DNA of 64,000 nt. It comes from an uncultured Spirochaetales bacterium. GTDB taxonomy: Bacteria > Myxococcota_A > UBA9160 > SMWR01. The stretch is from the NCBI GenBank assembly GCA_964437835.1, contig CAYTJA010000466.1, positions 6,019 through 70,018 on the forward strand, in the 5' to 3' direction. The notes under the pieces are model-generated. The model was not told the DNA's origin. It saw only the letters and a program-made list of their open reading frames with translations, and ran no database searches. Position 1 is the stretch's first letter; each line of letters starts with the position of its first letter. This document shows, piece by piece, positions 9,245-40,251 of the stretch. Both the position numbers and the translations under genes were made by a program.

Positions 9245-9246
9245 GC

Positions 9247-16836: not shown

Positions 16837-19800
16837 ATGGCGCGGCGCGGAAGACTCGTGCTCGAGCGCGGCCCCGAAGACGCGGTCGGCCTGCCCGCCT
16901 CGCTCGAGGCCGAGCGCCTGATCCTGGGCCGCGGCAGCGATTCCGACATTCGGCTCCCGGTCGCCGCGGTCTCGCGCGTGCACGCCGAGATCGTCTGGCA
17001 GGGCGAGCGCCTGATGCTGATCGCGCGCAGCACGACCAGCCCGACCGCGGTGAACGGCAGCAGCCTCGAGGGCTCGCGCGAGCTCGCGGACGGCGATCAG
17101 ATCGAGCTCGCGAACCAGGTGCTGCTGCGCGTCGAGCTGCCGCCGGCCGAGCCTGCGCGGGTGGCTGCGGATTCCGCCACGCTGGTGTTTGCCGCGCCGA
17201 CTCCGACTCCGGTGGCTCCAGCGCGCGCCCCGGTGGCGCCCGCAGCTCCGGCGGCGCCGGCGGCTCCTGCGGCGCCAGCAGCCCCTGCGACGCCCGCGCC
17301 CGTTGCGGCGCCAGCAGCGCCTGCGACACCCGTACCCGCTGCGCCGCCGGCAGCCCCTGCTAGGCCCGTACCCGCTGCGCCGCCGGCAGCTGCGGTCGCG
17401 GCTCCGGCAGCGGTCGCTCCGTCCCCCCCCGCCGCTGCGCCCGCGCCAGCCGCGGCGCCTGACGCGTTCAAGGGCCCCGCGCGCATCGCGATCGTCGGCG
17501 CGGGACCCGCCGGCATCGCCGCGGGGGTGCAGGCCGCCAAACGCGGCGTGCCTCACGTGCTGCTCGAGCGCGGCCGCCTGGCCGAGACGATCGAGCGCTA
17601 CCAGAAGGGCAAGTTCGTGATGGACGAGCCCACCCGGCTCACGCTGCATCCCGAGCTCGAGGTCGGCTTCAAGGCCGGCGCGCGCGAGGAGATCCTCGCG
17701 ACCTGGCAGAAGGCCGTGTCGCAGGCCGGAGTCGAGCTGCGCTGCGGGCGCGAGTTCGGGGTCCAGGAGATCCGCGGGCAGCGGGGGGCCTTCGAGCTCG
17801 TGTTGCGCGGTGGCGAGCGAATCCAGGCCACCCACGTGGTGCTCGCGATCGGGGTGCAGGGCAATCTCAAGAGCTTCGGCGTCGCAGGCGACGATCTGCC
17901 CCACGTCACCTATCAGCTCGACGACCCAGCCGCCTACGAGGGCAAGCGCGTCGCGATCGTCGGCGTCGGCGACGCCGGGATCGAGAACGCGCTCGCGCTC
18001 GCGCAGCACGACAACGACGTCTTCATCGTGAACCGGCGCGACGAGTTCGCGCGCGCGAAAGCGCGCAACCGCGCGCTCGTCGATGCCGCGATCAAGAGCG
18101 GCCAGATCGCGCACTACACCCACAGTACGGTCGACCACTTCGAGCCCGGCGCGGTCGTGCTGCGCCGCAAGGAAGGTCAGGAGCGCCTCGAGCTCGACCT
18201 CGTGATCGGCCGCCTCGGCGGAAACCCGCCGCGCGACTTCCTGCAGGGCCTCGGCGTGCAGTTCGCGTCGGAAGATCCCGAGGCCGTGCCCGAGCTCTCG
18301 CCGAGCTACGAGACGAACGTTCCGGGCATCTTCGTGATCGGCGCGCTCGCGGGCTACCCGCTGATCAAGAACTGCATGAACCAGGGCTTCGAGGTCGTCG
18401 AGCACATCCTCGGCCAGCCCGTCACCCCGGCCGACGAGCCGCTGTTGCGCGAGAAGTTCAAGGGCATTCCGGGCAGCGTCAGCGAGATTCTCGAGCGCAT
18501 CCGCCGCCGCGTGCCGGTGTTCCGCGATCTCACGCCGGTCCAGCTGCGTGAGTTCTTGTTCGAAGCGGAGGTGAAGCAACTGAAAGCTGGCGAGGTCGTC
18601 TACCGCCGCAACGACTACACCAACGAGTTCTACGCGGTGCTCGCGGGCAAGGTCGCGCTCGAGGAGCCCTCCCTGGAACGCGACGTCGACGTCGGGCGCA
18701 CGATCGCGTTCACGCGCACGCTGCTCGCACAGGACATCCAGGGCTACCGGCGCGAGGTGCCGATCGGCGGCTTCTTCGGCGAGACCGAGCTCTTCTCGGG
18801 TCGGCGTCGCAGTGCGACGGCCACCGCGCTCGAGCCGACCCTCGTCATCGAGGCGCCGCGCCTCTCGATGGCGCGGCTGCTGCAGTCGACTCCGGCCGTG
18901 CAGCGAGCCGTGGATGCGGTGTTTGTCGAGCGCACGCTCGAAAAGCGCCTGCCCGAGCTCTCCGCGGCCGAGCGCGCGGCGCTCGCGGCTGCGGCCGAGA
19001 TCCGCCACTACCCCCCCGATCAGGTGATCTTCAAGGAAGGCGACGCGCCGGACGGTCTGCACCTGATCCGGCGTGGGTCGGTCGCGATCCAGCGCGTGGT
19101 CGACGGCCGCGAGCGCGTGATGCAGTACCTGCAGACCGGCGCGTGGCTCGGCGTGATGGGCGTGCTGTCGCCGGAGCTCGGCCGCCGAGCATCGGTGCGC
19201 GCGAAGGTGCTGACCGAGACGCTGCTGCTGCCGCAAGCCGCGCTGCTGCCGCTGCTCAAATCGAACCGCGCGCTGCGCGAGGGGCTCCAGCGCTGCGCGA
19301 ACGAGGACGCCGTCTGGGACGCCATGCAGGCCGAGGGCGGCGGCGGAACGATGCTCTTCATTCTCGACAAGACCGGGGCCTTCGAGGCCACCGACCTGCT
19401 GCTGATCGACGAGTCGCTCTGCATCCGCTGCGACAACTGCGAGAAGGCCTGCGCGGACACGCACCTCGGCCTCTCGCGCCTCGATCGCGAAGCCGGGCCG
19501 ACCTATCAGACCTCCGGCGGCGCGCAGCTGCACGTGCCGACGGCCTGCCAGCACTGCGAGAACCCGAAGTGCATGGAGGACTGCCCACCCGACGCGATCC
19601 GCCGCCACGCGAACGGCGAGGTCTACATCAAGGACAACTGCATCGGCTGCGGCAACTGCAAGAACAACTGTCCCTACGGCGTGATCCAAATGGCGACGGT
19701 CGAGCCGTATCGGAAGGCGAACCTGCTGGCTCAGCTGCTGCTCGGCAGCAGCCCGAAGCGCGGCGGCGGCGCGCACGCCGAAGGCGAGGCGCACTCCGAA

Positions 19801-19947
19801 GCCGCGGTGAAGTGCGACCTCTGCCAGGGGCTGCCCGCGCCGAAGCGCGGCGGCACGCGCGCGGCCTGCGTCGCGGCCTGCCCGACCGGAGCGATCGTGC
19901 GCGTCGAGCCGCGCAACTTCATCGCCGAGCTGGTCAAAGGGCGTTGA
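16837..19947 (+). CDS. multidomain redox/signalling protein: FHA, Pro/Ala linker, FAD/NAD(P) pyridine-nucleotide-disulfide-oxidoreductase-like domain, 2x cyclic-nucleotide-binding domain, 4Fe-4S ferredoxin clusters
   Basis: 1036-aa ORF. FHA (LILGRGSDSDIRLPVAAVSRVHAEIVWQG...INGSS-type). IAIVGAGPAGIAAG and VAIVGVGDAGIENA dinucleotide folds. cNMP motifs GGFFGETELFSGRRRSATATA and FKEGDAPDGLHLIRRGSV. Cys clusters CIRCDNCEKAC, CQHCENPKCMEDCP, CIGCGNCKNNCP, CDLCQG...CVAACP. Confidence 0.85.
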   Translation: MARRGRLVLERGPEDAVGLPASLEAERLILGRGSDSDIRLPVAAVSRVHAEIVWQGERLMLIARSTTSPTAVNGSSLEGSRELADGDQIELANQVLLRVELPPAEPARVAADSATLVFAAPTPTPVAPARAPVAPAAPAAPAAPAAPAAPATPAPVAAPAAPATPVPAAPPAAPARPVPAAPPAAAVAAPAAVAPSPPAAAPAPAAAPDAFKGPARIAIVGAGPAGIAAGVQAAKRGVPHVLLERGRLAETIERYQKGKFVMDEPTRLTLHPELEVGFKAGAREEILATWQKAVSQAGVELRCGREFGVQEIRGQRGAFELVLRGGERIQATHVVLAIGVQGNLKSFGVAGDDLPHVTYQLDDPAAYEGKRVAIVGVGDAGIENALALAQHDNDVFIVNRRDEFARAKARNRALVDAAIKSGQIAHYTHSTVDHFEPGAVVLRRKEGQERLELDLVIGRLGGNPPRDFLQGLGVQFASEDPEAVPELSPSYETNVPGIFVIGALAGYPLIKNCMNQGFEVVEHILGQPVTPADEPLLREKFKGIPGSVSEILERIRRRVPVFRDLTPVQLREFLFEAEVKQLKAGEVVYRRNDYTNEFYAVLAGKVALEEPSLERDVDVGRTIAFTRTLLAQDIQGYRREVPIGGFFGETELFSGRRRSATATALEPTLVIEAPRLSMARLLQSTPAVQRAVDAVFVERTLEKRLPELSAAERAALAAAAEIRHYPPDQVIFKEGDAPDGLHLIRRGSVAIQRVVDGRERVMQYLQTGAWLGVMGVLSPELGRRASVRAKVLTETLLLPQAALLPLLKSNRALREGLQRCANEDAVWDAMQAEGGGGTMLFILDKTGAFEATDLLLIDESLCIRCDNCEKACADTHLGLSRLDREAGPTYQTSGGAQLHVPTACQHCENPKCMEDCPPDAIRRHANGEVYIKDNCIGCGNCKNNCPYGVIQMATVEPYRKANLLAQLLLGSSPKRGGGAHAEGEAHSEAAVKCDLCQGLPAPKRGGTRAACVAACPTGAIVRVEPRNFIAELVKGR
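17269..17390 (+). repeat. degenerate 36-nt (12-codon) tandem repeats encoding the Pro/Ala linker
   Basis: Exact 26-nt direct repeat CCCGTACCCGCTGCGCCGCCGGCAGC at 17329-17354 and 17365-17390. Related units GCGGCGCCAGCAGC(C/G)CCTGCGAC start at 17269 and 17305. Period is 36 nt. Confidence 0.7.
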
Positions 19948-19949
19948 GC

Positions 19950-20999
19950 GTGGCCGTGGCCTTCGACCCGCTGATGCGACTTCGCGCGCGCGACCGCCGC
20001 CGGCTCGCAAGCGGCCTCGGGCTGGGCCTCGCGCTGGGCCTGGCACTCTGCGTGGCCGGCTGGCCCGGCACCGGCGTCAGCCTCGCGGGCTTCTGCGCCG
20101 CGAGCGGCCTCGGGCTCGGCTGGGCCAACTGGCCGCAGTGGCGCAAGGCCGCCTGGTGGCGCGGCCGCGGCGGCCTGCCGAAGAGTTACGCCCCCCGCAG
20201 CTTCCTGCGCTACGGGAACTTCCTGCACCTGAAGCTCGCGCTGACTGCCGTGGCCGCCGCCTCGCTCGCCTATCTCCTCGACGACCCGCCCGGAGGTCCC
20301 AGCGGGGGCAGCGCCCTCGGCTATGCGCTCGGGGTCTTCTCGACCGCGTTGGTCGTCTGGCTGCTCTGGTTCGGCGTGCGCAAGCGGCGCTACGACGGCG
20401 GCGGCGCGCCGCTGCAGGCCTGGCTCTCCGGCCACGTCTACCTCGGCCTGACGCTGCTCGTGCTGGTGCCGCTGCACTGCGGCTTCCAGTTCGGCTGGAA
20501 CGTGCACTCGCTGGCCGGAGCCCTGCTGTTCCTGACGCTCGTCTCCGGGATCTTCGGGCTCGTGGCCTACACGCAGATTCCCGCGCGCATGACGCGCAAC
20601 CGTCCCGGTCAGCAGCTCGAGGGCCTGCTGCAGCAGGTCGCCGATATCGACGAGCAGCTGCGCGCCGAGGCGCGCGAGCTGCGCAATGCCGAGCCCGTGC
20701 GGCGCGCGATCGAAGAGACCCGGATCGGTGGCGGCCTCGCGGCGCTGCTCTTCTTCTCGGAGGCGAATTGCGCGACCACGCAGGCGCAGGCCGCGCTGAA
20801 GCGCGCGCGCGACGACGACCCCGGTCTGCTGCGCCCGCTCGAGCTGCTGACGACCAAACAGGCGATCCTGCGCCGCGTGCGGCGCGACCTGCGCTACAAG
20901 GCGCTGCTCGACCTATGGCTCGTGCTGCACGTGCCGCTCTCGCTCGCGTGCGTGGCTGCGGTTGCAGTGCACGTGCTCGCGGTCTTCTACTACCGGTGA
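19950..20999 (+). CDS. polytopic membrane protein with two H-x13-H transmembrane helices (di-haem cytochrome-b-like)
   Basis: Track ORF 19143..20999 trimmed to GTG 19950 (alternative ATG 19974), 3 nt after the upstream stop. About 7 hydrophobic helices. GHVYLGLTLLVLVPLH and LHVPLSLACVAAVAVH each place two His exactly 13 residues apart. Confidence 0.65.
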   Translation: MAVAFDPLMRLRARDRRRLASGLGLGLALGLALCVAGWPGTGVSLAGFCAASGLGLGWANWPQWRKAAWWRGRGGLPKSYAPRSFLRYGNFLHLKLALTAVAAASLAYLLDDPPGGPSGGSALGYALGVFSTALVVWLLWFGVRKRRYDGGGAPLQAWLSGHVYLGLTLLVLVPLHCGFQFGWNVHSLAGALLFLTLVSGIFGLVAYTQIPARMTRNRPGQQLEGLLQQVADIDEQLRAEARELRNAEPVRRAIEETRIGGGLAALLFFSEANCATTQAQAALKRARDDDPGLLRPLELLTTKQAILRRVRRDLRYKALLDLWLVLHVPLSLACVAAVAVHVLAVFYYR

Positions 21000-21002
21000 C
21001 AC

Positions 21003-22841
21003 ATGCGACTGCGCCTGATCCAGGTCACGAGGCGGAAGTCCGGGCGCGAGTCGCGGCGCGAGTCGCAGCTCGAGGGCGAGCTGCTCGCACTCGGGCGCGG
21101 CTCCGACTGCGACCTCGAGCTCGTCGACCTGTCCGTCGCGCTCCGGCACGCGGAGCTGTTGCGCAAGGGCGATGGCGTGTACCTGCGGCCGGTCGGCCGC
21201 AGCGAGCTCAGCGTCTCGGGCCAGCGCTGCGTCGGCGAGCGGCGACTCGCGGTCGGCGATGTGGTGCGCATCGGTCCCTTCGAGCTGCGCGCGATCGCGG
21301 CCGAGGCCGGATTCGATCTCGCGCTCGAAGTCGAACAGATGGCGCGCCGCGAGGACGCGCGCGGCGAGCTCGCCAAGCGCAGCCGCCTGACGGTCGAGGG
21401 GGGATGGTTCTCGCGCCGCACGCTCTCCTTTGCCGGCGTCGCGGTGGTGCTGCTCGGCTTCCTCGTGCTGCCGCTCGCGCTCGGGCGCGCGGGCTCCTGG
21501 AGCAGCGGGCCCCTCTCCCACAAACACTCGTTCGCGGCCGATGACTGCGGCGAGTGCCACACGCGCGCGTTCGCCACCGTCGAGAACGGCGCCTGCCTCG
21601 ACTGCCACGCGGAGATCGGCAACCACAGCGACTCCCCGGCGCTCGCAGCCGCCGGCATGACCGGGGCCGCCTGCACCGACTGCCACAGCGAGCACGCGGG
21701 CGAGCCCGGTCTGCTCGCGCGCGCGCAGGACAGCTGCGCGGGCTGCCACACGGATCTCTCGCAGCGGCTCGAGCAGCCGCGCGTCGCGAATGCGAGCGAC
21801 TTCGCTGCGGACCACCCCGAGTTCCAGCTCGCGATGCTCGACCCCGCCACGCGCAAGGCGACCCCCGTCGGCTGGCAGCGGGATCTCGAGGAGCGCTCCG
21901 GCGTGGCCTTCTCACACGCGCGGCACGTCGGTGAAGCATTGCCCGAGGTGCCGGAGCGCCTGCGCAGCGACCCCGCGCGCAAGAGCGAGCCGCTGCGCTG
22001 CTCGAGCTGCCACCAGCTCGAAGCGGGAGGCCAGCGCATGCAGCCGATCGAGTTCGAGAAACACTGTCAGGCCTGCCACCAGCTCGGCTTCGACGCCGCG
22101 CTGCCGGACGACCAGGCGCCGCACGCGAAGCCGGTCGAGCTGCGCGAGGGGCTGCGCAGGCTCTACGCCGCGCAGGTGGTCGCGGGCAATGCGGCCGCGG
22201 TCGCGCTGCCGGAGGCGCTGCGCTTCCGGATCCCCGGCTCGACGCTCTCGGACCAGGAACAGTCGCAGGCGCAGGGCTTCGTCGACGCCCGCGTCCGGCG
22301 CGCCGAGCACGCGCTCTACGTCGAGCCCGGCGAGTGCGCGCGCTGCCACGCGCTCGAGCGCGACGCGCCGGCTGCGAGCGAAGAGAGCGGAGCGGGCGAA
22401 GCGTCCCTGGCCAAGCCGCCGAGCGTTCCGCCGGTCTATATCACCGAGCGCTGGATGCCGCAGTCGATGTTCCGGCACGCGACGCACGCGCCCTTCCCCT
22501 GCGCGGACTGCCACCCGGCCGCGGCGGCCTATCTCGAGGGCGGCGACGCCGAGAACCCGCGCCCCGAGTGGTCGCTGCCGGAGGCCGGGCCCTTTGCCCT
22601 GCGCACAGAAGCCGAGCTCCAAGAGCTCGGGCTGACGCCCAGCAAGCTGGCGTCCGACCTGCTGATTCCCGGCATCGAGCAGTGCCGCGGCTGCCACGGC
22701 GGCGAGAATGCGCGGCCGCCCGAGGTGGCCTCCGAGTGCAGCCTCTGCCACCGCTTCCACCGCGCCGAGCACGGGCCGATGCAGCCGGGCGGCGCGGCGC
22801 GGCCCTCGCCGGTGGCCCGCAACGCGGCGCACTCGGACTGA
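21003..22841 (+). CDS. FHA domain - single TM - decahaem c-type cytochrome
   Basis: 612-aa ORF. N-terminal FHA-like LALGRGSDCDLELVDLSVALRHAELLRKGDGVYL. TM helix LSFAGVAVVLLGFLVLPLAL. Ten CxxCH motifs: CGECH, CLDCH, CTDCH, CAGCH, CSSCH, CQACH, CARCH, CADCH, CRGCH, CSLCH. Confidence 0.85.
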   Translation: MRLRLIQVTRRKSGRESRRESQLEGELLALGRGSDCDLELVDLSVALRHAELLRKGDGVYLRPVGRSELSVSGQRCVGERRLAVGDVVRIGPFELRAIAAEAGFDLALEVEQMARREDARGELAKRSRLTVEGGWFSRRTLSFAGVAVVLLGFLVLPLALGRAGSWSSGPLSHKHSFAADDCGECHTRAFATVENGACLDCHAEIGNHSDSPALAAAGMTGAACTDCHSEHAGEPGLLARAQDSCAGCHTDLSQRLEQPRVANASDFAADHPEFQLAMLDPATRKATPVGWQRDLEERSGVAFSHARHVGEALPEVPERLRSDPARKSEPLRCSSCHQLEAGGQRMQPIEFEKHCQACHQLGFDAALPDDQAPHAKPVELREGLRRLYAAQVVAGNAAAVALPEALRFRIPGSTLSDQEQSQAQGFVDARVRRAEHALYVEPGECARCHALERDAPAASEESGAGEASLAKPPSVPPVYITERWMPQSMFRHATHAPFPCADCHPAAAAYLEGGDAENPRPEWSLPEAGPFALRTEAELQELGLTPSKLASDLLIPGIEQCRGCHGGENARPPEVASECSLCHRFHRAEHGPMQPGGAARPSPVARNAAHSD

Positions 22842-24858: not shown

Positions 24859-24907
24859 TTCCCCGAACCGCGGCTCCGATGAGGCCTGGCTTCGGCATTC
24901 GAGCGAT

Positions 24908-27574: not shown

Positions 27575-29635
27575 TTGCGCCTCAGCACCACGGGGATCTA
27601 CTGCGTCGCCGCCGCATCGGCGCTGTTGCTGGCGAGCTGCAAAGGGAAAAGCAGCCCGCGCGGGGGCCCGGACTCCCTCTGCGATGGCGCGTGCCTGCAA
27701 CAGGCGCTTACGCAGAACGATGTCGAGCACGTGGTCGCGCAGGCCAGCATCGAGGCGCAGGCCCAGGGCCTGCCGGTCACGATCGCGGTAGTCGACCGCG
27801 TCGGAAATGTGCTCGCGGTGTTCCGCATGACGGGCGCGTCGACCACCGTGGAGATCTCGGCCGGCCGTTCGAGCGCAAACGGTTCGGGGCTCGCCGGCTT
27901 CGAAATCGAGACGACGCTGGCCGCGATCAGCAAGGCCGGCACTGCGGCCTATCTCTCCTCGCAGGGCAACGCCTTTTCCACCCGGACCGCGAGCCAGATC
28001 GTGCAGGAGAACTTCAACCCGGGGGAGCGCGTGCGCGCGGGTGGCCCACTCTTCGGCGTGCAGTTCTCGCAGCTTCCCTGCGGAGATTTCGTGCGGCGTT
28101 TCGAGAGGAATGGCCTGACCGAGGACGTCTCGCTCGGACCCAAGCGCATGCCGCTCGGCTTCTCGGCCGATCCGGGCGGACTTCCGCTCTACAAGAGCGG
28201 CGTGCCCGTCGGCGGCGTCGGGATCGAGCTCGGCACGAACGCGAGCGCGCCGGCCGAGCAGAGCTACCGAACCGATCCCGACGTGCTCGACCAGGACGTC
28301 CAGCGCGAGGAACGCATCGCGACTGCCGCGGCTGTGAGCTTTGCGGCGCCCGCGAACCGGCGCGCGAACGCGATCTCCGTCGACGGCCGCTTCCTGCGCT
28401 TTGCGGACGATGAGCGCGTCTCGACGCAGCCGATCCCACTCGCGACGCCCGTGACTCTCCCGCCCTCGCTCGGGGTACTCGTGGATGTCGACGGCTTCTT
28501 CGCCGGGGGCGGCGTCCTCGCGGGCACGGAATTGCTGACCCCGGCCTCCGGCATCGTCGCGAGCAGTGTGGACGGGATCGCGGCCGAGCTCGTGGTCAAA
28601 ACGGACGGCACGAATCGCTACCCCGCGATCGACTCGCTCGTGCCCACGCCGGCGGCGGGCGGCATGAGCACCGCCGAAGTCACCGCCGTGCTGCGCGAGG
28701 CATTGCGCGTCGCCGGCCGCTCGCGCGCGCAGATCCGCCGGCCCGCGGGCTCGTCGGTGCGCGTGAACATCTCCATCGTCGACACCGAAGGAACGGTGCT
28801 CGGCTTCGCGCGCACGCCCGACGCGCCGATCTTCGGCGCGGACGTCTCGCTGCAGAAAGCGCGCACGGCGGCGTTCCTGTCGCGGCTCGTGCCTACCTCC
28901 GCAGCCGACGATCTGATCGCGGCGCTCCCGCCACTGCCGGAAGTCACCGCGAAATTCGACACGCGCCCGGTTTCCGAATACCTGATCGCGGCCCAGACTT
29001 TCCTCGCGAAGCCCGATGTCCTCGACGACGGCACCGCGATCAGCGACCGCACGCTCGGCAACCTCGCGCGGCCTTTCTTCCCGGACGGCGTGAACGGCAA
29101 CCCGCCCGGCCCCTTTTCGCGCGTCTTCGAGCGCTGGAGCCCCTTCTCGACCGGGCTGCAGCTCGACGCCGGCCTGCAGGGCATCGCGGTTGCGCTGTGC
29201 CGGAGCTCGCGCGAGCTCCGCAGCCTCCTGTCGATGACCGCCGTCGGCATGTCTCTGATCCCCCCGATCGACCCCGACTTTCCGAACACCTGTCCGGCCG
29301 AGCCGATCGCCTGCACCGATGCGCTCGGCCTCGACCCCGCGCTGCGCGAGCTCGCGAACGGCCTGCAGATCTTTCCCGGCAGCGTGCCGATCTACCGCGG
29401 CTCGCAGCTCGTCGGCGCGATCGGGGTCTCGGGGGACGGCGTCGATCAGGACGACATGGTCGCGTTCCTCGGCCTGCACAACGCGGGCCAGCTGCTCGGC
29501 ACCGGGATCGGAAACGCCCCGATTGCGCAGCGCGCCGACCAGATCCAGGTCGGCGGCGTCAACCTGCGTTATGTGAGCTGTCCGCCGAGCCCCTTCCTCG
29601 ACAGCTCGGAGCAGAGCCCGTGCAAGGGACTGTGA
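27575..29635 (+). CDS. lipoprotein with two GlcG/HbpS-like (DUF336) putative haem-binding domains
   Basis: 686-aa ORF (TTG start). Lipobox LLLASC. Domain 1: VTIAVVDRVGNVLAVFRM...AISKAGTAAYLSS...GGLPLYKSGVPVGGVGI. Domain 2: VNISIVDTEGTVLGFARTPDAPIFGADVSLQKARTAAF...IYRGSQLVGAIGVSGDGVDQDDMVA. Confidence 0.7.
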   Translation: MRLSTTGIYCVAAASALLLASCKGKSSPRGGPDSLCDGACLQQALTQNDVEHVVAQASIEAQAQGLPVTIAVVDRVGNVLAVFRMTGASTTVEISAGRSSANGSGLAGFEIETTLAAISKAGTAAYLSSQGNAFSTRTASQIVQENFNPGERVRAGGPLFGVQFSQLPCGDFVRRFERNGLTEDVSLGPKRMPLGFSADPGGLPLYKSGVPVGGVGIELGTNASAPAEQSYRTDPDVLDQDVQREERIATAAAVSFAAPANRRANAISVDGRFLRFADDERVSTQPIPLATPVTLPPSLGVLVDVDGFFAGGGVLAGTELLTPASGIVASSVDGIAAELVVKTDGTNRYPAIDSLVPTPAAGGMSTAEVTAVLREALRVAGRSRAQIRRPAGSSVRVNISIVDTEGTVLGFARTPDAPIFGADVSLQKARTAAFLSRLVPTSAADDLIAALPPLPEVTAKFDTRPVSEYLIAAQTFLAKPDVLDDGTAISDRTLGNLARPFFPDGVNGNPPGPFSRVFERWSPFSTGLQLDAGLQGIAVALCRSSRELRSLLSMTAVGMSLIPPIDPDFPNTCPAEPIACTDALGLDPALRELANGLQIFPGSVPIYRGSQLVGAIGVSGDGVDQDDMVAFLGLHNAGQLLGTGIGNAPIAQRADQIQVGGVNLRYVSCPPSPFLDSSEQSPCKGL

Positions 29636-31824
29636 GCGGCCGCAGGCGCGCGCGCGTTTTCGCGCGGGTCGTGTGTGCTGCGCTGCCGCTGCTCGCGCCC
29701 GCGGCGCACGCCGCCGACGCTGCGCTGCTCGCGCTGCGTGTCGGCGAGCACCCGGGCTACACGCGCGTCGTGCTCGAGCTCGACGTCGCGGCGCCGCTGA
29801 GCCTCGAGGAGCAGACCCGCATCGGTGACGCCAGCGAGCTGACGCTGCTGCTCAGCGCGGTCGCCGCCGCCGCGCAGCGAGTTCCCGGGAGCGGCCTCGT
29901 CGAGAGCATCCGCGTCGAGCCGCTCGCAGACGCGACGCGCGTGCGCATCCAACTGCGCGAGGCCGGAGTCGAATGGAAGCGCTCCGAGCTTTCGGGACCG
30001 CCGCGCTGGGTGCTCGACTTCTCGACCGGCAGCGGTCTCAGCGATGCGGAGCCCGGCGCCGGCCCCGCGCCGACTGTTGCAGAGCCCCCGCTGCTGGCTC
30101 GAGCGGAGGAAGTGGACGCGACGCCCGTGCCGCCGCGTTCCCGCCTGCGCCGGCCCGGCGACCGCGCGACGCCGCAGCCCGCGGTCGCAGGGCGCTCCAG
30201 CGATCCGGAGATCGCGGCCCGCAGCGCCGCGCGCGAGCGGCTGCCGCTGCCGGACTACGACTTCGTCGCGGTCCCCGACCGCTGGCGCATCGTCGAGAAC
30301 ATCGGCGTGAACGAAAGATTCTGGGATCCCTATCACCAGAACACCCTCAAGGGCGACCGCCCGATCCTCGGTACGCATGACTGGTTCGTGAACCTGGCCG
30401 CGATCTCCGACACCGTCGTCGAGCCGCGCCGGCTGCCGACGCCGGTCGGCCTGCAGGCGGAGCGCAAAGCCGGGCGCAACGGAATCTTCGGTGCCGGCGA
30501 GCAGCTGCTCGTAGTGCAGAACCTGATCCTGTCGGCGTCGCTGATCCAGGGCAACACCGTGTTCCGCCCGCCGGACTGGGAGTTCCGCTTCACGGGCGTC
30601 GGCAACGTCAACTACGCCGAGGTCGAGACGCTCGGCGTGTTGAAGGCCGACCCGGCCAAGGGCAGGAGCCGCACGGACGGGCACTTCGGCCTGCAGGAGG
30701 CCTTCGTCGACCGCCACCTGCGCAACAAGTCCGAGCGCTACGACTTCGACAGCCTGCGGCTCGGCGTGCAGCCCTTCATCTCCGACTTCCGCGGCTTCCT
30801 GTTCCAGGACAGCCAGCTCGGCGCGCGCGTCTTCGGCACCGCAGCGAACAACCGCATCCAGTACAACCTCGCCTACTTCCAGCGCCTCGAGAAGGACACG
30901 AACTCGGGGCTGAACCGATTCGACGCGCTGCGTGAGGACGGCGTGCTGTTCGCGAACGCCTACTACCAGGATTTCCCGGTGCTCGGCTTCACGAGCCAGG
31001 CGATCGTCGCCTACAACTGGAATCGCGAGGCCGACGACCGCCATTACAACGACAACGACTTCCTCGAGCGGCCCGCCCCGATCGGCGACGCGCGCGGCCA
31101 CGACTACGACGTCGTGTATCTCGGGCTGAACGGCGATGGCCACATCGACCGACTCAATCTCACCTTCGCCGGCTACTACGCGGCCGGGCACGACTCGCAC
31201 CAGCCGCTCGCGGCGCACAGCGCTGCGATCTCGGCCTGGTTCACCGCGCTGGAGGGCTCGCTCGACTTCGACTGGGTTCGGCTCAAGGCCTTCGGCCTGT
31301 TCGCGAGCGGCGATGCGGACCCGGAAGACGACCTCGCGACCGGCTTCGACGCGATCTTCGAGAATCCGCAGTTCGCGGGCGCCGACACCAGCTTCTTCCA
31401 GCGGCAGGGCATCCCGCTGATCTTCGGCGGCGGCGTCGTGCTGGTGTCGCGCAACGCGCTGCTGCCTTCGCTGCGAACCTCGAAGGAGGAAGGCCAGTCG
31501 AACTTCGTGAATCCGGGGCTCGGGCTGCTGGGCGTCGGCGCAGACCTCGACATCCTGCCCGAGCTGCGCCTGGTGGCGAACGCGAGCTGGCTCACGTTCC
31601 ACGAGGTCGACTCGCTGCAGCTGCTGCGCAACCAGGCCGAGGTCGACCATGAAATCGGCTGGGACCTCTCGGCCGGCCTGATCTACCGCCCGCTCTTGAT
31701 CCAGAACGTCGCGTTCCGCGTGTCCGGAGCGGTGCTGCTGCCGGGCGCCGGGATGCGCGATCTCTTCGAGACGCACCCGTCGCCCTTCTACTCGGTGCTG
31801 CTGAATCTCACGCTCACGTACTGA
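29632..31824 (+). CDS. AMIN-domain protein fused to a large outer-membrane beta-barrel
   Basis: Track ORF 29197..31824 trimmed to GTG 29632 (GTGA overlap with the upstream stop). Signal peptide ...LLAPAAHA. AMIN-like ALRVGEHPGYTRVVLELD...RVRIQL...RWVLDF. About 550 aa of beta-strand-rich sequence ending ...LLNLTLTY. Confidence 0.7.
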   Translation: MSGRRRARVFARVVCAALPLLAPAAHAADAALLALRVGEHPGYTRVVLELDVAAPLSLEEQTRIGDASELTLLLSAVAAAAQRVPGSGLVESIRVEPLADATRVRIQLREAGVEWKRSELSGPPRWVLDFSTGSGLSDAEPGAGPAPTVAEPPLLARAEEVDATPVPPRSRLRRPGDRATPQPAVAGRSSDPEIAARSAARERLPLPDYDFVAVPDRWRIVENIGVNERFWDPYHQNTLKGDRPILGTHDWFVNLAAISDTVVEPRRLPTPVGLQAERKAGRNGIFGAGEQLLVVQNLILSASLIQGNTVFRPPDWEFRFTGVGNVNYAEVETLGVLKADPAKGRSRTDGHFGLQEAFVDRHLRNKSERYDFDSLRLGVQPFISDFRGFLFQDSQLGARVFGTAANNRIQYNLAYFQRLEKDTNSGLNRFDALREDGVLFANAYYQDFPVLGFTSQAIVAYNWNREADDRHYNDNDFLERPAPIGDARGHDYDVVYLGLNGDGHIDRLNLTFAGYYAAGHDSHQPLAAHSAAISAWFTALEGSLDFDWVRLKAFGLFASGDADPEDDLATGFDAIFENPQFAGADTSFFQRQGIPLIFGGGVVLVSRNALLPSLRTSKEEGQSNFVNPGLGLLGVGADLDILPELRLVANASWLTFHEVDSLQLLRNQAEVDHEIGWDLSAGLIYRPLLIQNVAFRVSGAVLLPGAGMRDLFETHPSPFYSVLLNLTLTY

Positions 31825-31837
31825 GGCCGATCCACAC

Positions 31838-34800
31838 ATGAAGCTCGCGTTTCCGCTCACGACCGCCCTCGCCGCCGCACTGCTCGCGGCGGTCGCGGCA
31901 GGCGCAGCCGAAGGAGAGGCGCCGCGCGAGATCGCCTATCCGAGCACCCCACCCGCGCCCGAGCACCAGGACAGCGCGCAAGCGGAGGCCAAGAGCGCGG
32001 GCTGCCGCAGCTGCCATACCCCGATGGACGAGGCGAGCATGCACGCGACGCCGGGCGTCGAGCTCGGCTGCAGCGACTGCCACGGCGGAAATGCCGAGAC
32101 CGCGCGCCCCGCGCAGAGTTTTCCGGGCGGCCGCGCCTACGAAGAGGCCAAGGCGCGCGCGCACGTGCAGCCGCGCTATCCGCACGCGTGGGGCCTCGAC
32201 GAGGAGGGGCGGCGTGTCGGCCCGCAGCCGGTGCGCGCCTACACGCTCTACAACCGCGAAGCACCGGAATTCATCCGCTTCGTGAACCCGGGCGACCTGC
32301 GCGTGGCCGAGGAAGCCTGCGGCGCGTGCCACGCGGAGATCGTGCAGGCGAACCGGCGCAGCCTGATGGCGACCGGCGCGATGCTCTGGGGAGGAGCCTC
32401 GTACAACAACGGGATTCTTCCCTTCAAGCGCTACGTGCTCGGCGAGGCCTACACGCGCGACGGTCAGCCGGCCGCGATCGAGAGCCGCTTCGAAATCAGC
32501 CCCGAGCTCGCGAAGCGCGGCGTGCTGCCGCGCTTCCTGCCGCTGCCCGCCTGGGAGACGATCCCTCCTATGGACAACTTCCGCGTCTTCGAGCGCGGCG
32601 GCAAGTTCAACGTTTCGCAGTTCCCGGAGATCGGTCTGCCCAAGTCGCAGGACGATCCCGGCAAGCCCGACATCCGCCAGAGCAACCGCGGCGAGGGCAC
32701 CGGCGCGCGCATCGCGGTGCCCGCGCTGAACATCCACAAGACGCGCCTCAACGATCCCTTGCTGTGGTTCCCCGGCACGAACGACAACCCCGGCGACTTC
32801 CGCGCCTCGGGCTGCAGCGGCTGCCACGTCGTCTACGCGAACGACCGCGAGCCGCTGCACTCGGGCCTCTACGCGGCCGCCGGGCACCAGGGCCAGTCCC
32901 AGAGCGCCGACCCGACGATCGCGGAGCGGCTGAACGCCAGCGGCCACAAGGAGTCCGGCCACCCGCTGAAGCACGCCTTCACGCGCGCAATTCCGACCGC
33001 GCAGTGCATGACCTGCCACATGCATCAGCCGAACATGTTCGTGAACTCCTACCTCGGCTACACGATGTGGGACTACGAGGCCGATGCGCCGCTGATGTGG
33101 CCGAAGCAGCAGGCCTACCCCTCCATCCCGGAGATGCACGAGCGCCTCGAGCGCAACCCCGAGGAGGCGAACATCCGTGGCCTCTGGGGAGACCCCGAAT
33201 TCCTCTCCCGCGTCTGGGACGACGTAAACCCGCAGGCGCGCGACACGCAGTTTGCCGACTATCACGGCCACGGCTGGAACTTCCGCGGCGTGTTCAAGCG
33301 CAACCGCAAGGGCGCGCTGCTCGACGCGAAGGGCGAGACGATCCCCGACGACCTGCCGCCCAAGCAGAAATGGCAGCGAGCGGTCCACCTGCGCGACATC
33401 CACGTCGAGTACGGGATGCAGTGCTCGGACTGCCACTTCGCACAGGACTCGCACGGCGACGGCTTCCTGAAAGGGGAGGTCGCGGCCGCGGTCGAGATCG
33501 GCTGCGCGGACTGCCACGGCACCAGCCGCGCGCGGCCGACGCTGCGCACATCGGGCCCCGCGGCACCGCCGGGCGGCAACGACCTCAGCTTCTTGCGCAA
33601 CGCGGATGGCGGCGCGCGCTTCGTCTGGCGCGGCGAGCGCTTGTACCAGCGCCTGGTCCTGCCGCCGCACACAGAGATCGAAGTCACGCAGGTGATCGAC
33701 ACCGTGACCAGGGGCCATCCGGCCTACAACGCCAAGGCCGCGCGCGCGAAGACCCTCGAGCGCGGGCCCGGCCAGCGCTGGGGCGAGGCGGCTTCGGGTT
33801 GCGAACGCGCGCACGACGACGAGAAGCTGGCCTGCTTCAGCTGCCACTCGTCGTGGGTCACGAGCTGCGGCGGCTGCCACCTGCCGATCCAGGCCAACTG
33901 GAAGACCGAGCGCCACCACTACGAGGGCGGCGAGACGCGCAACTTCGCGACCTACAACCCGCAGGTCGCGCGCGACGAGATGTTCCAGCTGGGCGTCCAC
34001 GGCGAGGCGAAAAACGGCATCATCGCGCCGGTGCGCTCGTCCTCGGCGCTGGTGCTCTCGTCGACCGACATCAACCGCAACCGCATCTACCAGCAGCAGC
34101 CGCCGGTCTCGGCCGGCGGTTTCAGCGCGCAGGCCTTTGCGCCGCACTTCCCGCACACGGTGCGCAAGACCGAGACCAAGACCTGCACGGACTGCCACGT
34201 CTCGCAGCGCAACGACAACAATGCGCTGATGGCGCAGCTGCTGCTGCTCGGCACGAACTTCGTGAACTTCACCGGCTACAACGCGTGGGTCGGAGGCGAG
34301 CGCCATCTCTCCGCGATCCAGGTCACCGAGTGGGACGAGCCGCAGGCCGTACTCGGGAGCTACCTGCACCGGTACGCCTATCCCGACTGGTTCGCGGAGC
34401 ACGAGGCGCGCGGCCGCGAACTCACGCGGCCGAGCCCGGGCGCACTCGACGCGGACCCCGGCTGGGTCGCCTCGCTGCGGCGCTTCTTCCAGGGGAGCTT
34501 CGGAGGCCACGCGATCTACGACGGAACCTACGGCCACGGCTCGGGCCCGGTCGGCTGCCTGCAGCTGCGCGGCGAGTACCTCTACGCGGCCGAGGGCCCG
34601 CGCGGCATGCAGGCCTACGACGTCGCGTCGGTCGCGAACAAGGGCTTCTCGGAGCGCGTGGTCACGGCGCCCTTCTCGCCGCTGGGCCAGAACCTGCGCG
34701 TGAAGTCACGCAACGCGACTTGCGTTGCGCTGCCGACGACCCAGCCGATCCGCCCCGAGCGCAACCGCCAGGTTCGCGAGGCGTTTCCCGAGAACCTCGA

Positions 34801-35731
34801 GCAGGCGATGCACCCGATCTACAGCTATGCCGCGGTGACCGACTCCGAAGAGGGCCTGATCCTCGTGAACGTCGAGACCCTCGGCGACTTCGAGCCGCGC
34901 AACAACTTCTTCGAGCGCGCACTGACCTGGAATCCCGGCGGCCTGCTGGATGGCGCGCGGCATGCGCACTTCGCGGGGCACCTGCTCTACGTCTCGGCCG
35001 ACACCGGCATCATCGTCGTCGACCTGAACGACCCGCTGCAGCCGAAGGCGCTCGCGCGGATCCCGCTGATCAAGCCGCGCGCGTCGATGCAGCAATTCCG
35101 CTACCTCTTCGCGGTCGACCTCGAGGGTTTCAAGGTCGTCGATGTGACGAACCCCGCCGCACCGCGCCTCCTGCCCGGCTCGAGCGTGCGCCTCGCCGAC
35201 GCGCGGCGCGTCTTCGTCTCGCGCACCTACGCCTACGTTGCCGCGGGCCGCGAGGGTCTCGTGATCATCGACGTCGAGCGCCCCGAAGAGCCGCGCATCG
35301 CGCAGCGCTTCGACGCGGGCGGCCAGCTCTCCGACGCGCGCGACGTGATCGTCTCGACGACCAACGCCTCGCTCTTCGCCTACGTCGCCGACGGCGTGAA
35401 CGGCCTCAAGGTGCTGCAGCTGACTTCGCCCGAGAGTCAGCCGCGCCTCTACGGCTTCAGCCCCGAGCCGAAACCCGAGCTGATCGCGTGGCGCAAGACT
35501 GCCTCCCCGGCGCTCTCGCTCTCGCGCCCCCTCGAACGCGACCGCGCGGTCGACGAGACCGGCCACCAGATCGCGGTCTTCGGCCGCGTCGGCTCGCGGC
35601 CCTTCGACCTCGAGGAGATGCAGCAGCTGTATCTCGGCGACGACGAGCGCGTCTGGACCGTCGAGGACGAGGAATCCATCCCGAGCGCTGCGCGGGCGAG
35701 CGGCGGACCCCGCGATCGCTGCCCGCCCTGA
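31838..35731 (+). CDS. secreted decahaem c-type cytochrome fused to a C-terminal LVIVD-repeat (beta-propeller-like) region
   Basis: 1297-aa ORF with a signal peptide. Ten CxxCH motifs: CRSCH, CSDCH, CGACH, CSGCH, CMTCH, CSDCH, CADCH, CFSCH, CGGCH, CTDCH. C-terminal repeats: GLILVNVETL, GIIVVDLNDPLQP, GFKVVDVTNPAAP, GLVIIDVERPEEP, GLKVLQLTSPESQP. Confidence 0.85.
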   Translation: MKLAFPLTTALAAALLAAVAAGAAEGEAPREIAYPSTPPAPEHQDSAQAEAKSAGCRSCHTPMDEASMHATPGVELGCSDCHGGNAETARPAQSFPGGRAYEEAKARAHVQPRYPHAWGLDEEGRRVGPQPVRAYTLYNREAPEFIRFVNPGDLRVAEEACGACHAEIVQANRRSLMATGAMLWGGASYNNGILPFKRYVLGEAYTRDGQPAAIESRFEISPELAKRGVLPRFLPLPAWETIPPMDNFRVFERGGKFNVSQFPEIGLPKSQDDPGKPDIRQSNRGEGTGARIAVPALNIHKTRLNDPLLWFPGTNDNPGDFRASGCSGCHVVYANDREPLHSGLYAAAGHQGQSQSADPTIAERLNASGHKESGHPLKHAFTRAIPTAQCMTCHMHQPNMFVNSYLGYTMWDYEADAPLMWPKQQAYPSIPEMHERLERNPEEANIRGLWGDPEFLSRVWDDVNPQARDTQFADYHGHGWNFRGVFKRNRKGALLDAKGETIPDDLPPKQKWQRAVHLRDIHVEYGMQCSDCHFAQDSHGDGFLKGEVAAAVEIGCADCHGTSRARPTLRTSGPAAPPGGNDLSFLRNADGGARFVWRGERLYQRLVLPPHTEIEVTQVIDTVTRGHPAYNAKAARAKTLERGPGQRWGEAASGCERAHDDEKLACFSCHSSWVTSCGGCHLPIQANWKTERHHYEGGETRNFATYNPQVARDEMFQLGVHGEAKNGIIAPVRSSSALVLSSTDINRNRIYQQQPPVSAGGFSAQAFAPHFPHTVRKTETKTCTDCHVSQRNDNNALMAQLLLLGTNFVNFTGYNAWVGGERHLSAIQVTEWDEPQAVLGSYLHRYAYPDWFAEHEARGRELTRPSPGALDADPGWVASLRRFFQGSFGGHAIYDGTYGHGSGPVGCLQLRGEYLYAAEGPRGMQAYDVASVANKGFSERVVTAPFSPLGQNLRVKSRNATCVALPTTQPIRPERNRQVREAFPENLEQAMHPIYSYAAVTDSEEGLILVNVETLGDFEPRNNFFERALTWNPGGLLDGARHAHFAGHLLYVSADTGIIVVDLNDPLQPKALARIPLIKPRASMQQFRYLFAVDLEGFKVVDVTNPAAPRLLPGSSVRLADARRVFVSRTYAYVAAGREGLVIIDVERPEEPRIAQRFDAGGQLSDARDVIVSTTNASLFAYVADGVNGLKVLQLTSPESQPRLYGFSPEPKPELIAWRKTASPALSLSRPLERDRAVDETGHQIAVFGRVGSRPFDLEEMQQLYLGDDERVWTVEDEESIPSAARASGGPRDRCPP

Positions 35732-35755: not shown

Positions 35756-37093
35756 TCACAGCAATTTGCGCAGCTTCTCGAACGCCGCCGAGGCGCGCGC
35801 GCGGTCGTAGTTTTCGGGATTGTCGAGCTGCTCTGCGAATTTCAGCGCCGCGTCGATCAGGGAGCCGGCCCGCTGCGCCGAAAGCGCGCCCTGCTGCCGC
35901 AGGTTGTCGGCCAGCGCCTGAACCGCGAGCGCGGCCTGCTCGGCCGCGGCGTAGTCGAGATATTCGCCCGAGGCGCCCTCGGCGAGCAGGCTGTCGAGCA
36001 CGCGCCGGATCGCGGCGGCGTCTGGCTTCCACGCGTCGAGGGTCGCGATCGCGGTCTGCAGGCGAGCCAGCATCCGCTGCGCGGCCTGTTGCGCCTCGGC
36101 CGGCCCTTTCGCGGTGGCCTGGTGCAGCGCGCGGAGCTCGCCGCGCAGCGCTTCGGCCTGCTCCGGCGCGGCTGCAACCAGCCCGTGCCGCAGCATCAGG
36201 AAGCTCGCGTCGGAGAGCCGCGGGACGCCGGGCCCGAGGCCGGTGCTCGCGCGCGCGCGCCAGCGGGCCTCGCTCATCGGGTGGTGACAGGCGTGGCAGT
36301 CGAATAGCACCAGCTCGGGCCAGACGCCGTCGTGCCCGCGCCCCGCGTCCAGGAACAGCTCGAGCAGCCGCCGGGCCGCGACCGCCTGCCCGATCGCCCA
36401 GAACTGCGCGCCCTCGGCCGCGCGCTTCCCGCGCGGCGGGTAGCGCTTCGCCGTCGTCTCGGAGTCGAAGTGCGCGGGCTGGGTCAGCGAGAAGACCTGC
36501 AGCTCGAAGCTGATGCGCGGATGGCCCGCGCCCATCAGGCGATGGCCGACGAGCTTGTCGCGCGTGCCGATGTGGCAGGAGCTGCAGAGCTCGGCACGCA
36601 GCAAGGGATCGTCGGTCGGGTACATCCCGTCGCGCAGATTGTCTGCGCGGGAGCGGCCCGAATCGTGCGGCTTCAGCCAGCCCTCGCTGCCGCCGTGACA
36701 GGCCTCGCAGCCGACGCCGCCCGCGAGATCGAACTTCGCGCCGCGGCGCTGCGCGGGCACATGATCCGCATGGCAGTCGAGGCAGAGCGCCGACTCGTGC
36801 GCCGCCCCGATCCCGAGGCTCGCGGCGATCTGCTTGGATTTCTGGTCGAAGAGGTGCTGATAGGCCTTCGCGTGCTGATCTTCCTGCTTCCAGAGCGTGT
36901 ACTCGCTCTGCCAGACCGCTCCCTTGCCGGGCCCGAGCTTGCCGTGACAGGGCGCACCCGCGCAGGACGCGACGCCTTCGTGGCGCTGCCCGTCGGCCTG
37001 CGGAAGCACCGGCTGCGCCGCGACCGCAGCCGCGCAGAGCGCGCCGCACGCGGCCCTGCCACAGAGCGCCCCGAGCTCGCGAATCCCGATCAC
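35756..37093 (-). CDS. multihaem c-type cytochrome (cytochrome c554-like family)
   Basis: 445-aa ORF with a signal peptide. CAGAPCH (CX4CH) plus CLDCH, CEACH, CSSCH, CHACH. Helical C-terminal half. Confidence 0.8.
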   Translation of the reverse strand: MIGIRELGALCGRAACGALCAAAVAAQPVLPQADGQRHEGVASCAGAPCHGKLGPGKGAVWQSEYTLWKQEDQHAKAYQHLFDQKSKQIAASLGIGAAHESALCLDCHADHVPAQRRGAKFDLAGGVGCEACHGGSEGWLKPHDSGRSRADNLRDGMYPTDDPLLRAELCSSCHIGTRDKLVGHRLMGAGHPRISFELQVFSLTQPAHFDSETTAKRYPPRGKRAAEGAQFWAIGQAVAARRLLELFLDAGRGHDGVWPELVLFDCHACHHPMSEARWRARASTGLGPGVPRLSDASFLMLRHGLVAAAPEQAEALRGELRALHQATAKGPAEAQQAAQRMLARLQTAIATLDAWKPDAAAIRRVLDSLLAEGASGEYLDYAAAEQAALAVQALADNLRQQGALSAQRAGSLIDAALKFAEQLDNPENYDRARASAAFEKLRKLL

Positions 37094-39267: not shown

Positions 39268-39307
39268 GGCATCTCCTGTCCGGTGGAAAGCGGGGTCAGT
39301 CTAAGAG

Positions 39308-40243: not shown

Positions 40244-40251
40244 GGCAAGCG

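Follow-up and report, generated by a model that had tools for sequence, protein, structure and literature searches.

The window analysed here is a stretch of 64,000 nucleotides (nt) of contig CAYTJA010000466.1 (assembly GCA_964437835.1) from an uncultured Spirochaetales bacterium. Three consecutive genes in this window encode an HbpS/GlcG-like lipoprotein, a beta-barrel protein of the outer membrane, and a large secreted decahaem cytochrome with a C-terminal beta-propeller (Table 1). An earlier note, made from the letters of the DNA alone, had described them as a three-gene operon that resembles a porin-cytochrome conduit but is built from different parts. Comparison with homologous loci showed that the trio is kept together with four further genes for redox proteins. 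We propose, with moderate confidence, that it forms the outer and invariant portion of a conserved module of seven genes, by which electrons would be taken from the cytoplasm to the outer membrane.

Table 1. Genes of the seven-gene module in the window and the predicted parts of their products (aa, amino acids; TM, transmembrane)
Feature	Position	Strand	Description
Cytoplasmic reductase gene	16837..19947	+	1036 aa
Reductase, FHA domain	aa 29-91		
Reductase, Pro/Ala-rich linker			
Reductase, FAD/NAD(P) domain	aa 216-517		Thioredoxin-reductase-like
Reductase, cyclic-nucleotide-binding (cNMP) domains			
Reductase, 4Fe-4S ferredoxin region	aa 856-1020		C-terminal
Five-TM-helix (5-TM) inner-membrane protein gene	19974..20999	+	About five TM helices, from hydropathy and alignment
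FHA-decahaem cytochrome gene	21003..22841	+	612 aa, inner-membrane-anchored
FHA-decahaem cytochrome, FHA/YscD-like part			Cytoplasmic
FHA-decahaem cytochrome, TM helix	aa ~141-160		One helix
FHA-decahaem cytochrome, haem part			Periplasmic, 10 CXXCH
HbpS/GlcG-like lipoprotein gene	27575..29635	+	686 aa, outer-membrane lipoprotein
Lipoprotein gene, lipobox Cys22 codon	27638-27640	+	Motif LLLASC
Lipoprotein, two HbpS/GlcG-like domains	aa ~42-225, ~378-640		A large insertion in each
Barrel gene	29632..31824	+	730 aa, outer-membrane protein with signal peptide
Barrel protein, AMIN-like domain	aa ~30-115		Weak, sub-threshold in Pfam
Barrel protein, disordered linker	aa 117-190		
Barrel protein, near-invariant motif	aa 213-247		PVPDRWRIVE...DPY.QNTLKGDRP, from alignments
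Barrel protein, 18-strand barrel	aa 251-729		AlphaFold model
Barrel protein, loop between strands 13 and 14	31306..31518	+	aa 559-629, 71 aa, extracellular loop 7 by topology
Decahaem/propeller cytochrome gene	31838..35731	+	1297 aa
Cytochrome, Sec signal	aa 1-24		No lipobox
Cytochrome, haem region	aa 56-787		10 CXXCH (aa 56-783)
Cytochrome, LVIVD beta-propeller	aa ~897-1219		Six- or seven-bladed, from LVIVD repeats and a confident AlphaFold model
Cytochrome, conserved C-terminal tail	aa ~1225-1285		
Pentahaem cytochrome gene	35756..37093	-	445 aa, periplasmic, 4 CXXCH and 1 conserved CX4CH

The layout of the trio is as the note had given it. The lipoprotein and barrel genes overlap at 29632-29635 (...ctGTGAgc...), where the TGA of the former shares bases with the GTG start of the latter, and a gap of 13 nt separates the barrel TGA (31822-31824) from the cytochrome ATG at 31838. 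A second possible start of the barrel gene, the GTG at 29620, likewise overlaps the lipoprotein gene. The GTGA overlap suggests that lipoprotein and barrel are translationally coupled and points to a stoichiometric pair. The window has a GC content of about 70%, at which long chance reading frames are frequent, and antisense open reading frames (ORFs) of 653, 763, and 907 aa overlap the trio region; the trio ORFs are taken as the genuine genes because each has thousands of homologues and their order is conserved.

The two GlcG/DUF336 domains previously read in the lipoprotein were also recovered. The protein belongs to the Pfam family HbpS-like (PF03928), matching it in three stretches with 89.7 bits (cut-off 25), and in its PDB matches domains begin near aa 42 and aa 380 and one ends near aa 638, from which it follows that the protein consists of two domains with insertions. 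PF03928 is carried by all 120 listed homologues, 82 of which have a lipobox-like motif, and the only labels found on them are ‘GlcG (DUF336)’ and ‘heme-binding protein’. The HbpS-like relatives in the PDB include haem binders (4nkp, 4bmw); the lipoprotein of the window contains two His.

The barrel protein reached no Pfam or NCBIfam family, found no PDB relative by sequence or profile search, and has one Cys and no CXXCH motif. An AlphaFold2 model of the single protein, built from an 88-sequence alignment, has 18 long strands; its mean predicted local distance difference test score (pLDDT) is 79, and most of the barrel region scores above 90. Its long connections fall between odd and even strands and are therefore assigned as the external loops. 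In a Foldseek search of the PDB, AlgE came first (E 4.5e-16), followed by 18-strand OprD/Occ channels and other smaller porins, and no MtrB-type barrel was present among the top 50 matches. The likeness to the AlgE/OprD fold is one of structure (TM-score 0.67-0.71 on the target, sequence identity 10-13%). The most conserved stretch of the protein, near-invariant in the alignments, is loop 7 (GFDAIFENP...SLRSSKEEGQSNFVNPG), which contains no His, Cys, or Met and is modelled with high pLDDT despite little secondary structure. From the high pLDDT and the near-invariance we infer that loop 7 folds into the barrel lumen, as loops in OprD and AlgE do. MtrB reportedly has 26 strands and encloses MtrA; with 18 strands and an in-folded loop, the barrel modelled here would be too small to enclose a multihaem domain in the same manner. 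The earlier note had singled out a lumen too narrow for a haem domain as the outcome that would speak against its proposal, and for a multihaem sheath this is what the model indicates.

The earlier note had called this protein an AMIN-domain beta-barrel; the barrel stands, while the AMIN domain is found only below threshold and in the closest relatives. In the window protein PF11741 scores 15 bits (E=0.026) against a cut-off of 20.5, and the close relative P0003 has precomputed PF11741/PF24837 matches, but the alignment confines the AMIN-like domain to the closest relatives, most of the family being without it. The same N-terminal position is occupied by an SH3 domain in some Betaproteobacteria-type loci, by a Pro-rich linker in others, and by nothing in the rest. 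Judging from these alignments, the AMIN domain is a lineage-specific and not a defining feature of the barrel family, and the peptidoglycan-binding head of the protein appears to have been swapped between lineages. At the loci L083 (7888-9999) and L085 (7823-9991), N-terminal SH3_3/SH3_4 domains stand in place of the AMIN-like domain.

The third protein is indeed a secreted 1297-aa decahaem cytochrome with a propeller tail, as had been noted. Exactly ten CXXCH motifs are present in all 116 full-length homologues, and the core family shares the Sec signal without a lipobox. It is noteworthy that this is the most conserved protein of the module. The identity across phyla is 55-68%, with a mean column identity of 61%, and the median identity to the window sequence falls from 59% for the cytochrome through 54% for the barrel, 45% for the lipoprotein, and 44% for the reductase to 29% for the FHA-cytochrome. 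Such conservation is enzyme-like, unlike that of the fast-evolving outer-surface cytochromes of metal reducers. The haem region, modelled without cofactors, has a pLDDT of 30-70 and a fold that is not assignable; Foldseek with the cytochrome model gave generic propellers only, sequence and profile searches gave no PDB relative, and a weak choice-of-anchor-B match was obtained. Besides the motif residues there are 11 invariant His, enough to ligate all ten haems.

Two kinds of relatives are informative. The 1648-aa relative P0381 contains 28 CXXCH motifs, of which 18 extra ones lie in about 540 N-terminal residues of c7-type repeats; this fusion precedes a whole cytochrome module that is 41% identical over aa 51-1278, and it fits an entry of electrons at the N-terminal end of the cytochrome. 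The divergent relatives P0384, P0386, and P0374 (40-47% identity) have nine or ten CXXCH motifs, those with nine being without the third, and their N-termini resemble the signal peptides of lipoproteins (LIGC, IIGC), which is not so in the core family. A further candidate, P0471, considered as a natural barrel-cytochrome fusion, was rejected as a frame-shifted, low-quality gene call with a garbled linker and only two CXXCH motifs.

When one genome per species was scanned for the barrel gene, it was found in at least 594 species-level genomes of Alpha-, Beta-, and Gammaproteobacteria, Myxococcota, and Acidobacteriota, including those of cultured strains, e.g., Sediminihaliea albiluteola F7430, Thalassotalea sp. 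ND16A, Undibacterium sp. SXout7W, Hyphococcus sp. ECK-19, Paludibacillus litoralis HZG-20, and Oceanibacterium hippocampi. Metagenomic protein clusters at 90% identity that match each of the trio proteins number in the thousands. Where homologues have been named, the label is just ‘hypothetical protein’, ‘GlcG (DUF336)’, ‘heme-binding protein’, or ‘alginate export domain’ protein. Gene order was studied in 86 loci by ORF clustering followed by tblastn. The order lipoprotein-barrel-cytochrome is kept in every locus long enough to show it, and the barrel is tied to multihaem cytochromes wherever it is found. The five neighbourhoods that were reached from cytochrome homologues have the same gene order. 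The only genes conserved as neighbours of the trio across loci are redox genes.

There are four such neighbours. The first encodes a cytoplasmic reductase, whose Pfam domains are accompanied by NCBIfam YpdA/TrxR-like and HydN/NrfC-like matches and which has no export signal; a homologue is present in 67 of the 86 loci, and most of the remaining loci are truncated. Reductase forms of about 800 aa are without the N-terminal FHA domain. This is the case at L086, where a separate 357-aa FHA/YscD-like protein (13850-14923) is encoded right after the decahaem gene. The second gene encodes the 5-TM inner-membrane protein, the homologues of which begin near codon 73; the true start in the window may be near 20190. 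Two pairs of His (H154/H168 and H319/H333), the members of each being 14 residues apart and the pairs belonging to two TM helices, are invariant in all 62 sequences. The Pfam cytochrome b561 model (PF01292) is matched by 23 of 26 family members, all below the 30.1-bit cut-off (best E 1.5e-7), and no PDB match was found by sequence or profile. Such His pairs are a well-known mark of two transmembrane b haems; from them and the weak b561 similarity, the protein is probably a dihaem cytochrome b.

The third neighbour, the membrane-anchored FHA-decahaem cytochrome, has a homologue in 71 of the 86 loci. Its gene is always directly upstream of the lipoprotein gene except in the window, the only locus with three unrelated genes in between. 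The fourth is a pentahaem cytochrome with a cytochrome c554-like N-terminal half and a helical, poorly conserved C-terminal half. In the window its gene is convergent with the decahaem gene, with 24 nt between them; elsewhere a homologue lies within 10 kb in 58 of the 86 loci, and in many of them directly downstream on the same strand. The seven-gene set is complete in 34 of the 42 loci with enough flank, another six of which lack only the pentahaem gene within range, and in several lineages, Betaproteobacteria among them, all seven genes are on one strand.

These results alter the picture of the earlier note in two respects. Its three-gene operon was correct in order but not complete, the conserved set being one of seven genes, and its statement that the third partner is a lipoprotein rather than a second cytochrome does not hold, as there are two further conserved cytochrome genes, the FHA-decahaem gene upstream and, 24 nt downstream of the trio and on the other strand, the pentahaem gene. 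The assertion that the system is built from different parts was upheld, in that no protein reaches the Mtr or Pcc family models. As to function, a trans-envelope electron path agrees with synteny, domains, and a c-type haem count of 10 + 5 + 10 = 25 for the module, but an Mtr-like threading through the barrel does not agree with the barrel model. Synteny and domain content taken together give good support to a trans-envelope redox system from non-Mtr parts.

The outer and inner parts of the module can be found apart. In a second sample, which consisted of metagenome loci followed outward from the 5-TM gene, 19 had enough downstream sequence. The lipoprotein-barrel-cytochrome trio was present in 16 of them (in L110 only the cytochrome is visible within range), two (L111 and L164) have the inner trio of reductase, 5-TM protein, and FHA-cytochrome alone, and one (L137) is similar to ptd, a published sister cluster to which we return below. 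Since the inner module occurs with the outer trio, alone, or with unrelated outer proteins, at least two terminal modules behave as exchangeable, and the outer trio is one of them.

The electron path that we favour draws each of its steps from domains and gene order. NAD(P)H would reduce the FAD of the cytoplasmic reductase, and electrons would pass through the 4Fe-4S clusters of the same protein to the two b haems of the 5-TM protein, which would carry them across the inner membrane in a split NOX/ferric-reductase-like arrangement. From there they would enter the membrane-anchored FHA-decahaem cytochrome and go on to the soluble pentahaem cytochrome. The end point would be the 1297-aa decahaem/propeller cytochrome, taken as the terminal reductase, which would act at the outer membrane in concert with the lipoprotein and the barrel, a translationally coupled pair. 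Its placement as the terminal, constrained, outer-membrane part follows from its being the most conserved protein, from the haem fusion in P0381, and from the divergent relatives with lipoprotein-type N-termini. As the barrel seems too small to be a sheath, the role of a specific narrow channel or docking site is favoured for it: an electron acceptor or a small mediator may reach the cytochrome through it, or a thin protein segment may thread it. The FHA and cNMP domains suggest that docking and activity are both regulated.

Several points weigh against this proposal. The direction of electron flow is taken from domain logic only, and the HbpS-like lipoprotein is given no role. Small solutes normally cross general porins, so that a dedicated channel for a small acceptor meets no obvious need, and the position of loop 7 in the lumen has no broader basis than pLDDT and near-invariance. 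As the 11 invariant His suffice for the ten haems, no open, five-coordinate catalytic haem is evident in the supposed terminal reductase. Furthermore, the lipobox in P0384 and P0386 makes a surface location possible, and both the LVIVD repeats and the weak choice-of-anchor-B match are typical of surface proteins.

The last two points lead to an alternative along the lines of the earlier note, which we regard as possible but doubtful, namely that the trio is a true trans-outer-membrane conduit in which the decahaem/propeller cytochrome is displayed on the cell surface, electrons pass through the barrel in a Cyc2-like manner by a bound cofactor or a thin haem-bearing element, haem on the HbpS-like lipoprotein possibly acts as a relay, and the acceptors are insoluble or polymeric and extracellular. 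The strict linkage of barrel and cytochrome speaks for such a conduit, as do propellers of the LVIVD/choice-of-anchor type, the lipobox of the divergent cytochromes, and the haem binders (4nkp, 4bmw) within the HbpS-like family; the authors of the ptd study read that sister cluster as a porin-cytochrome complex (bioRxiv 10.1101/2023.11.21.568154). However, an 18-strand barrel of the AlgE/OprD type with a conserved loop would be too tight for a multihaem domain; CXXCH motifs are absent from the barrel protein, as are His, Cys, and Met from its loop 7. The core-family cytochrome has an ordinary Sec signal without a lipobox, the lipoprotein of the window has only two His, and none of the proteins matches the MtrA, MtrB, or MtrC families.

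It is also conceivable, but improbable, that the chain runs inward, the outer trio oxidising an external or periplasmic donor, for example Fe(II), reduced sulfur, or an electrode, and passing the electrons to the inner membrane or the cytoplasm. The Fe(II) oxidiser Ferrigenium has an inner module of this kind, for which a role as the link between outer-membrane oxidases and the quinone pool was suggested (bioRxiv 10.64898/2026.01.22.701106), and the homologous locus L034 comes from a biocathode metagenome-assembled genome. On this path, however, electrons would have to move against the membrane potential and uphill to NAD(P)+ in a flavo-FeS enzyme behind a dihaem b; the hosts are mostly aerobic heterotrophs (SAR116, Halieaceae, Brevundimonas, Sphingobium, Lysobacter), and no quinone-binding subunit was recognised. 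A non-redox machine, in which lipoprotein and barrel would, for instance, export a polymer in the manner of AlgE/AlgK or take up or degrade haem and only happen to have cytochrome genes beside them, can claim that the barrel fold is closest to AlgE, which works with the lipoprotein AlgK, and that the HbpS family by its Pfam name includes haem-degrading proteins, but it is scarcely credible, as genes for glycosyltransferases, polymerases, or TonB/haem uptake are not conserved in the vicinity, the conserved neighbours are all redox genes, Pfam Alginate_exp gives no match even at E <= 10, and the cytochrome linkage holds across five phyla or classes.

The outward path to the outer membrane, which remains our preferred reading, can be extended further, to a form that we consider unlikely as it stands. 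The seven genes might constitute a self-contained NOX-like exporter that moves electrons of NAD(P)H, not of quinol, through the inner and the outer membrane of common aerobic heterotrophs (among them SAR116, Halieaceae, Caulobacteraceae, Burkholderiales, Lysobacterales, and Myxococcota), with the trio as a new terminal unit and with cyclic nucleotides and Ser/Thr-kinase/FHA signalling as the switch. Such an exporter could underlie the widespread formation of extracellular superoxide by heterotrophic bacteria, reductive iron acquisition, or the reduction of dissolved organic matter where waters are oxic. Should the proposed path be true, many common aerobic bacteria would possess a regulated means of delivering cytoplasmic reducing power to the envelope or beyond without recourse to the quinone pool. 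This would matter for extracellular electron transfer in organisms other than the classic metal reducers, for the chemistry of iron and reactive oxygen in the sea, and for the interpretation of the ptd genes, which are highly transcribed in oxygen-deficient zones. The cultured carriers make the proposal directly testable.

Other genes stand near the module in the window and elsewhere. Three of them separate the FHA-cytochrome and lipoprotein genes of the window. The first encodes a 225-aa secreted protein (22893-23570, +) in which a CTGGNCH (CX4CH) motif and a tail of the PEP/MXYO-CTERM type accompany a choice-of-anchor V domain (82 bits); it is similar to the MXAN_6652 family, which is MXYO-CTERM-anchored, and suggests that the window comes from a member of the Myxococcota. 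The region 23506-27301 (-) encodes the other two, a MetA/phenol-degradation-like outer-membrane protein (a sub-threshold Pfam match) and a 797-aa Ser/Thr protein kinase (24908-27301); the kinase is placed beside two FHA-domain proteins and might regulate them. An HDOD-GGDEF diguanylate cyclase (37241-38761, +) comes right after the pentahaem gene, and GGDEF-EAL and HD-domain genes are nearby at L082. The kinase, MetA-like, choice-of-anchor V, and HDOD-GGDEF genes were considered as members of the system and rejected, as they are not conserved at other loci. Further downstream, the translation of 38929-42423 (+) was read as having a molybdopterin-oxidoreductase-like N-terminal motif (MQTHKTYCRFCHALCG...) that belongs to the C-terminal two thirds of the ORF, and that of 39308-40243 as aldo/keto-reductase-like, both readings having been made from the translation only. 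The Myxococcota-type loci L001 (16189-19186) and L084 (13819-16907) have in common a DUF2868 protein and a DUF3482/MMR_HSR1 GTPase after the decahaem gene, a pair that is absent from the window. At the Betaproteobacteria-type loci L082 (1-3444) and L083 (1867-3171), the seven-gene cluster has the cytochrome c maturation genes ccmABC and ccmH/cycH immediately upstream of it, on the opposite strand.

A search of the available literature found no description of the lipoprotein-barrel-cytochrome trio; the Tenderiales uet cluster and an Idiomarina paper were considered and proved unrelated to it. The inner module, on the other hand, has precedents in two preprints, of 2024 and 2026, which describe the systems closest to this one, and the suggestion of an independent solution is not entirely new, as the first of them describes a sister cluster that shares this module. 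The ptd operon (ptdABCDEFG; bioRxiv 10.1101/2023.11.21.568154) encodes a FAD/NAD(P) enzyme, a protein with cNMP and two 4Fe-4S parts, a ferric-reductase-like membrane protein, a decahaem and a tetrahaem cytochrome, an NrfA-like pentahaem cytochrome, and a porin, and its function is stated there to be completely unknown. Compared by description only, its order of tetrahaem, FeS/cNMP, TM, and decahaem genes is that of the pentahaem cytochrome, reductase, 5-TM, and FHA-cytochrome genes here, e.g., at L086. The outer proteins are different: PtdA is an NrfA-like pentahaem cytochrome with a beta-sandwich and PtdB another porin, no pentahaem cytochrome of that kind is present here, and the ptd description includes neither an HbpS-like lipoprotein nor a propeller cytochrome. 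In addition, the FAD and FeS parts are split in ptd and fused here.

The metagenome contig L137 (38% GC), which we call ptd-like on account of its arrangement and not of a sequence match to the published ptd genes, carries sequence homologues of the inner module. At 5310-11112 (-) it encodes this module together with a tetrahaem cytochrome resembling the 445-aa pentahaem protein of the window, a 627-aa pentahaem cytochrome, and an 838-aa protein that has two Cds6_C/NTF2-like domains and a C-terminal part ending in Phe like an outer-membrane barrel. Its pentahaem cytochrome and 838-aa outer-membrane protein have no homology to the cytochrome and barrel of the window (hhalign probability 0.2%, BLASTP not significant). 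In Ferrigenium straubiae, a trio of an FHA-nonahaem cytochrome, a 5-TM protein, and a [4Fe-4S] protein has been described as novel (bioRxiv 10.64898/2026.01.22.701106). Its architecture is the same as that of the three inner genes here, and stand-alone trios are likewise present at L111 and L164. However, the Ferrigenium trio is not linked to the lipoprotein-barrel-cytochrome genes, an inward electron flow was proposed for it, and its 5-TM protein was deemed non-redox, while the invariant His pairs in our family argue for two b haems.

Together with its inner set, the trio is a widespread and experimentally unstudied variant of the porin-cytochrome systems. With MtrCAB, MtoAB, and PioAB it shares the adjacency of a barrel gene to multihaem cytochrome genes and a haem chain across the envelope. 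However, the barrel has 18 strands here against about 26-28 in the MtrB/PioB type, and it gave no match to an MtrB/PioB model in Pfam or NCBIfam. Instead of a compact MtrA-like decahaem protein there is a 1297-aa cytochrome with one haem per approximately 79 aa over 790 aa; the cut-off of the DmsE family (MtrA), 192.2 bits, was not reached by any protein of the cluster, the best score being 24.1 for the FHA-cytochrome, and the 1297-aa cytochrome gave none. A surface lipoprotein cytochrome of the MtrC/OmcA type is also missing, the cytochrome being without a lipobox and scoring 12.3 bits with PF22113 (cut-off 30). The input, moreover, is apparently NAD(P)H via FeS clusters and haem b, not quinol via CymA. 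The Pcc/Ext systems of Geobacter (OmaB-OmbB-OmcB; ExtHIJKL and ExtM-S) are porin-cytochrome clusters too, and the Ext clusters can include a non-cytochrome lipoprotein (ExtH). Locally, the cytochrome resembles ExtM (NF040943; E 3.9e-20, 71.7 bits) and also ExtN/O, but these scores are far below the equivalog cut-offs of 800 and 200 bits, and we know of no propeller, HbpS-like lipoprotein, or NAD(P)H reductase in the Geobacter clusters. Membership in the Mtr or Pcc systems was rejected, as neither the family models nor the strand number fit.

With AlgE and OprD the barrel shares its 18-strand fold, and with AlgE also an outer-membrane lipoprotein encoded alongside. In contrast to AlgE, it has no polysaccharide genes nearby, is always linked to cytochromes, and has a near-invariant loop 7 and N-terminal motif; an alginate-type exporter was rejected as a poor fit to this gene context. 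Cyc2, in which the haem domain and the barrel are said to form one polypeptide, is a possible functional analogue, as there too a c-type cytochrome goes together with a barrel that is small and could not hold a haem wire. Here, however, the barrel contains no CXXCH motif and the cytochrome is a separate protein of 1297 aa. The inner part of the module, finally, is reminiscent of NOX, FRD, and MsrQ, in that a cytoplasmic NAD(P)H/FAD unit would feed two b haems, with electrons leaving the cytoplasm. NOX proteins have two His pairs on two helices; the 5-TM protein has only weak similarity to the b561 and Ferric_reduct families. In contrast to NOX, FRD, and MsrQ, the parts are separate proteins here, with 4Fe-4S clusters in between, and the acceptor would be a multihaem c chain instead of the O2 or Fe(III) that NOX and FRD reduce directly.

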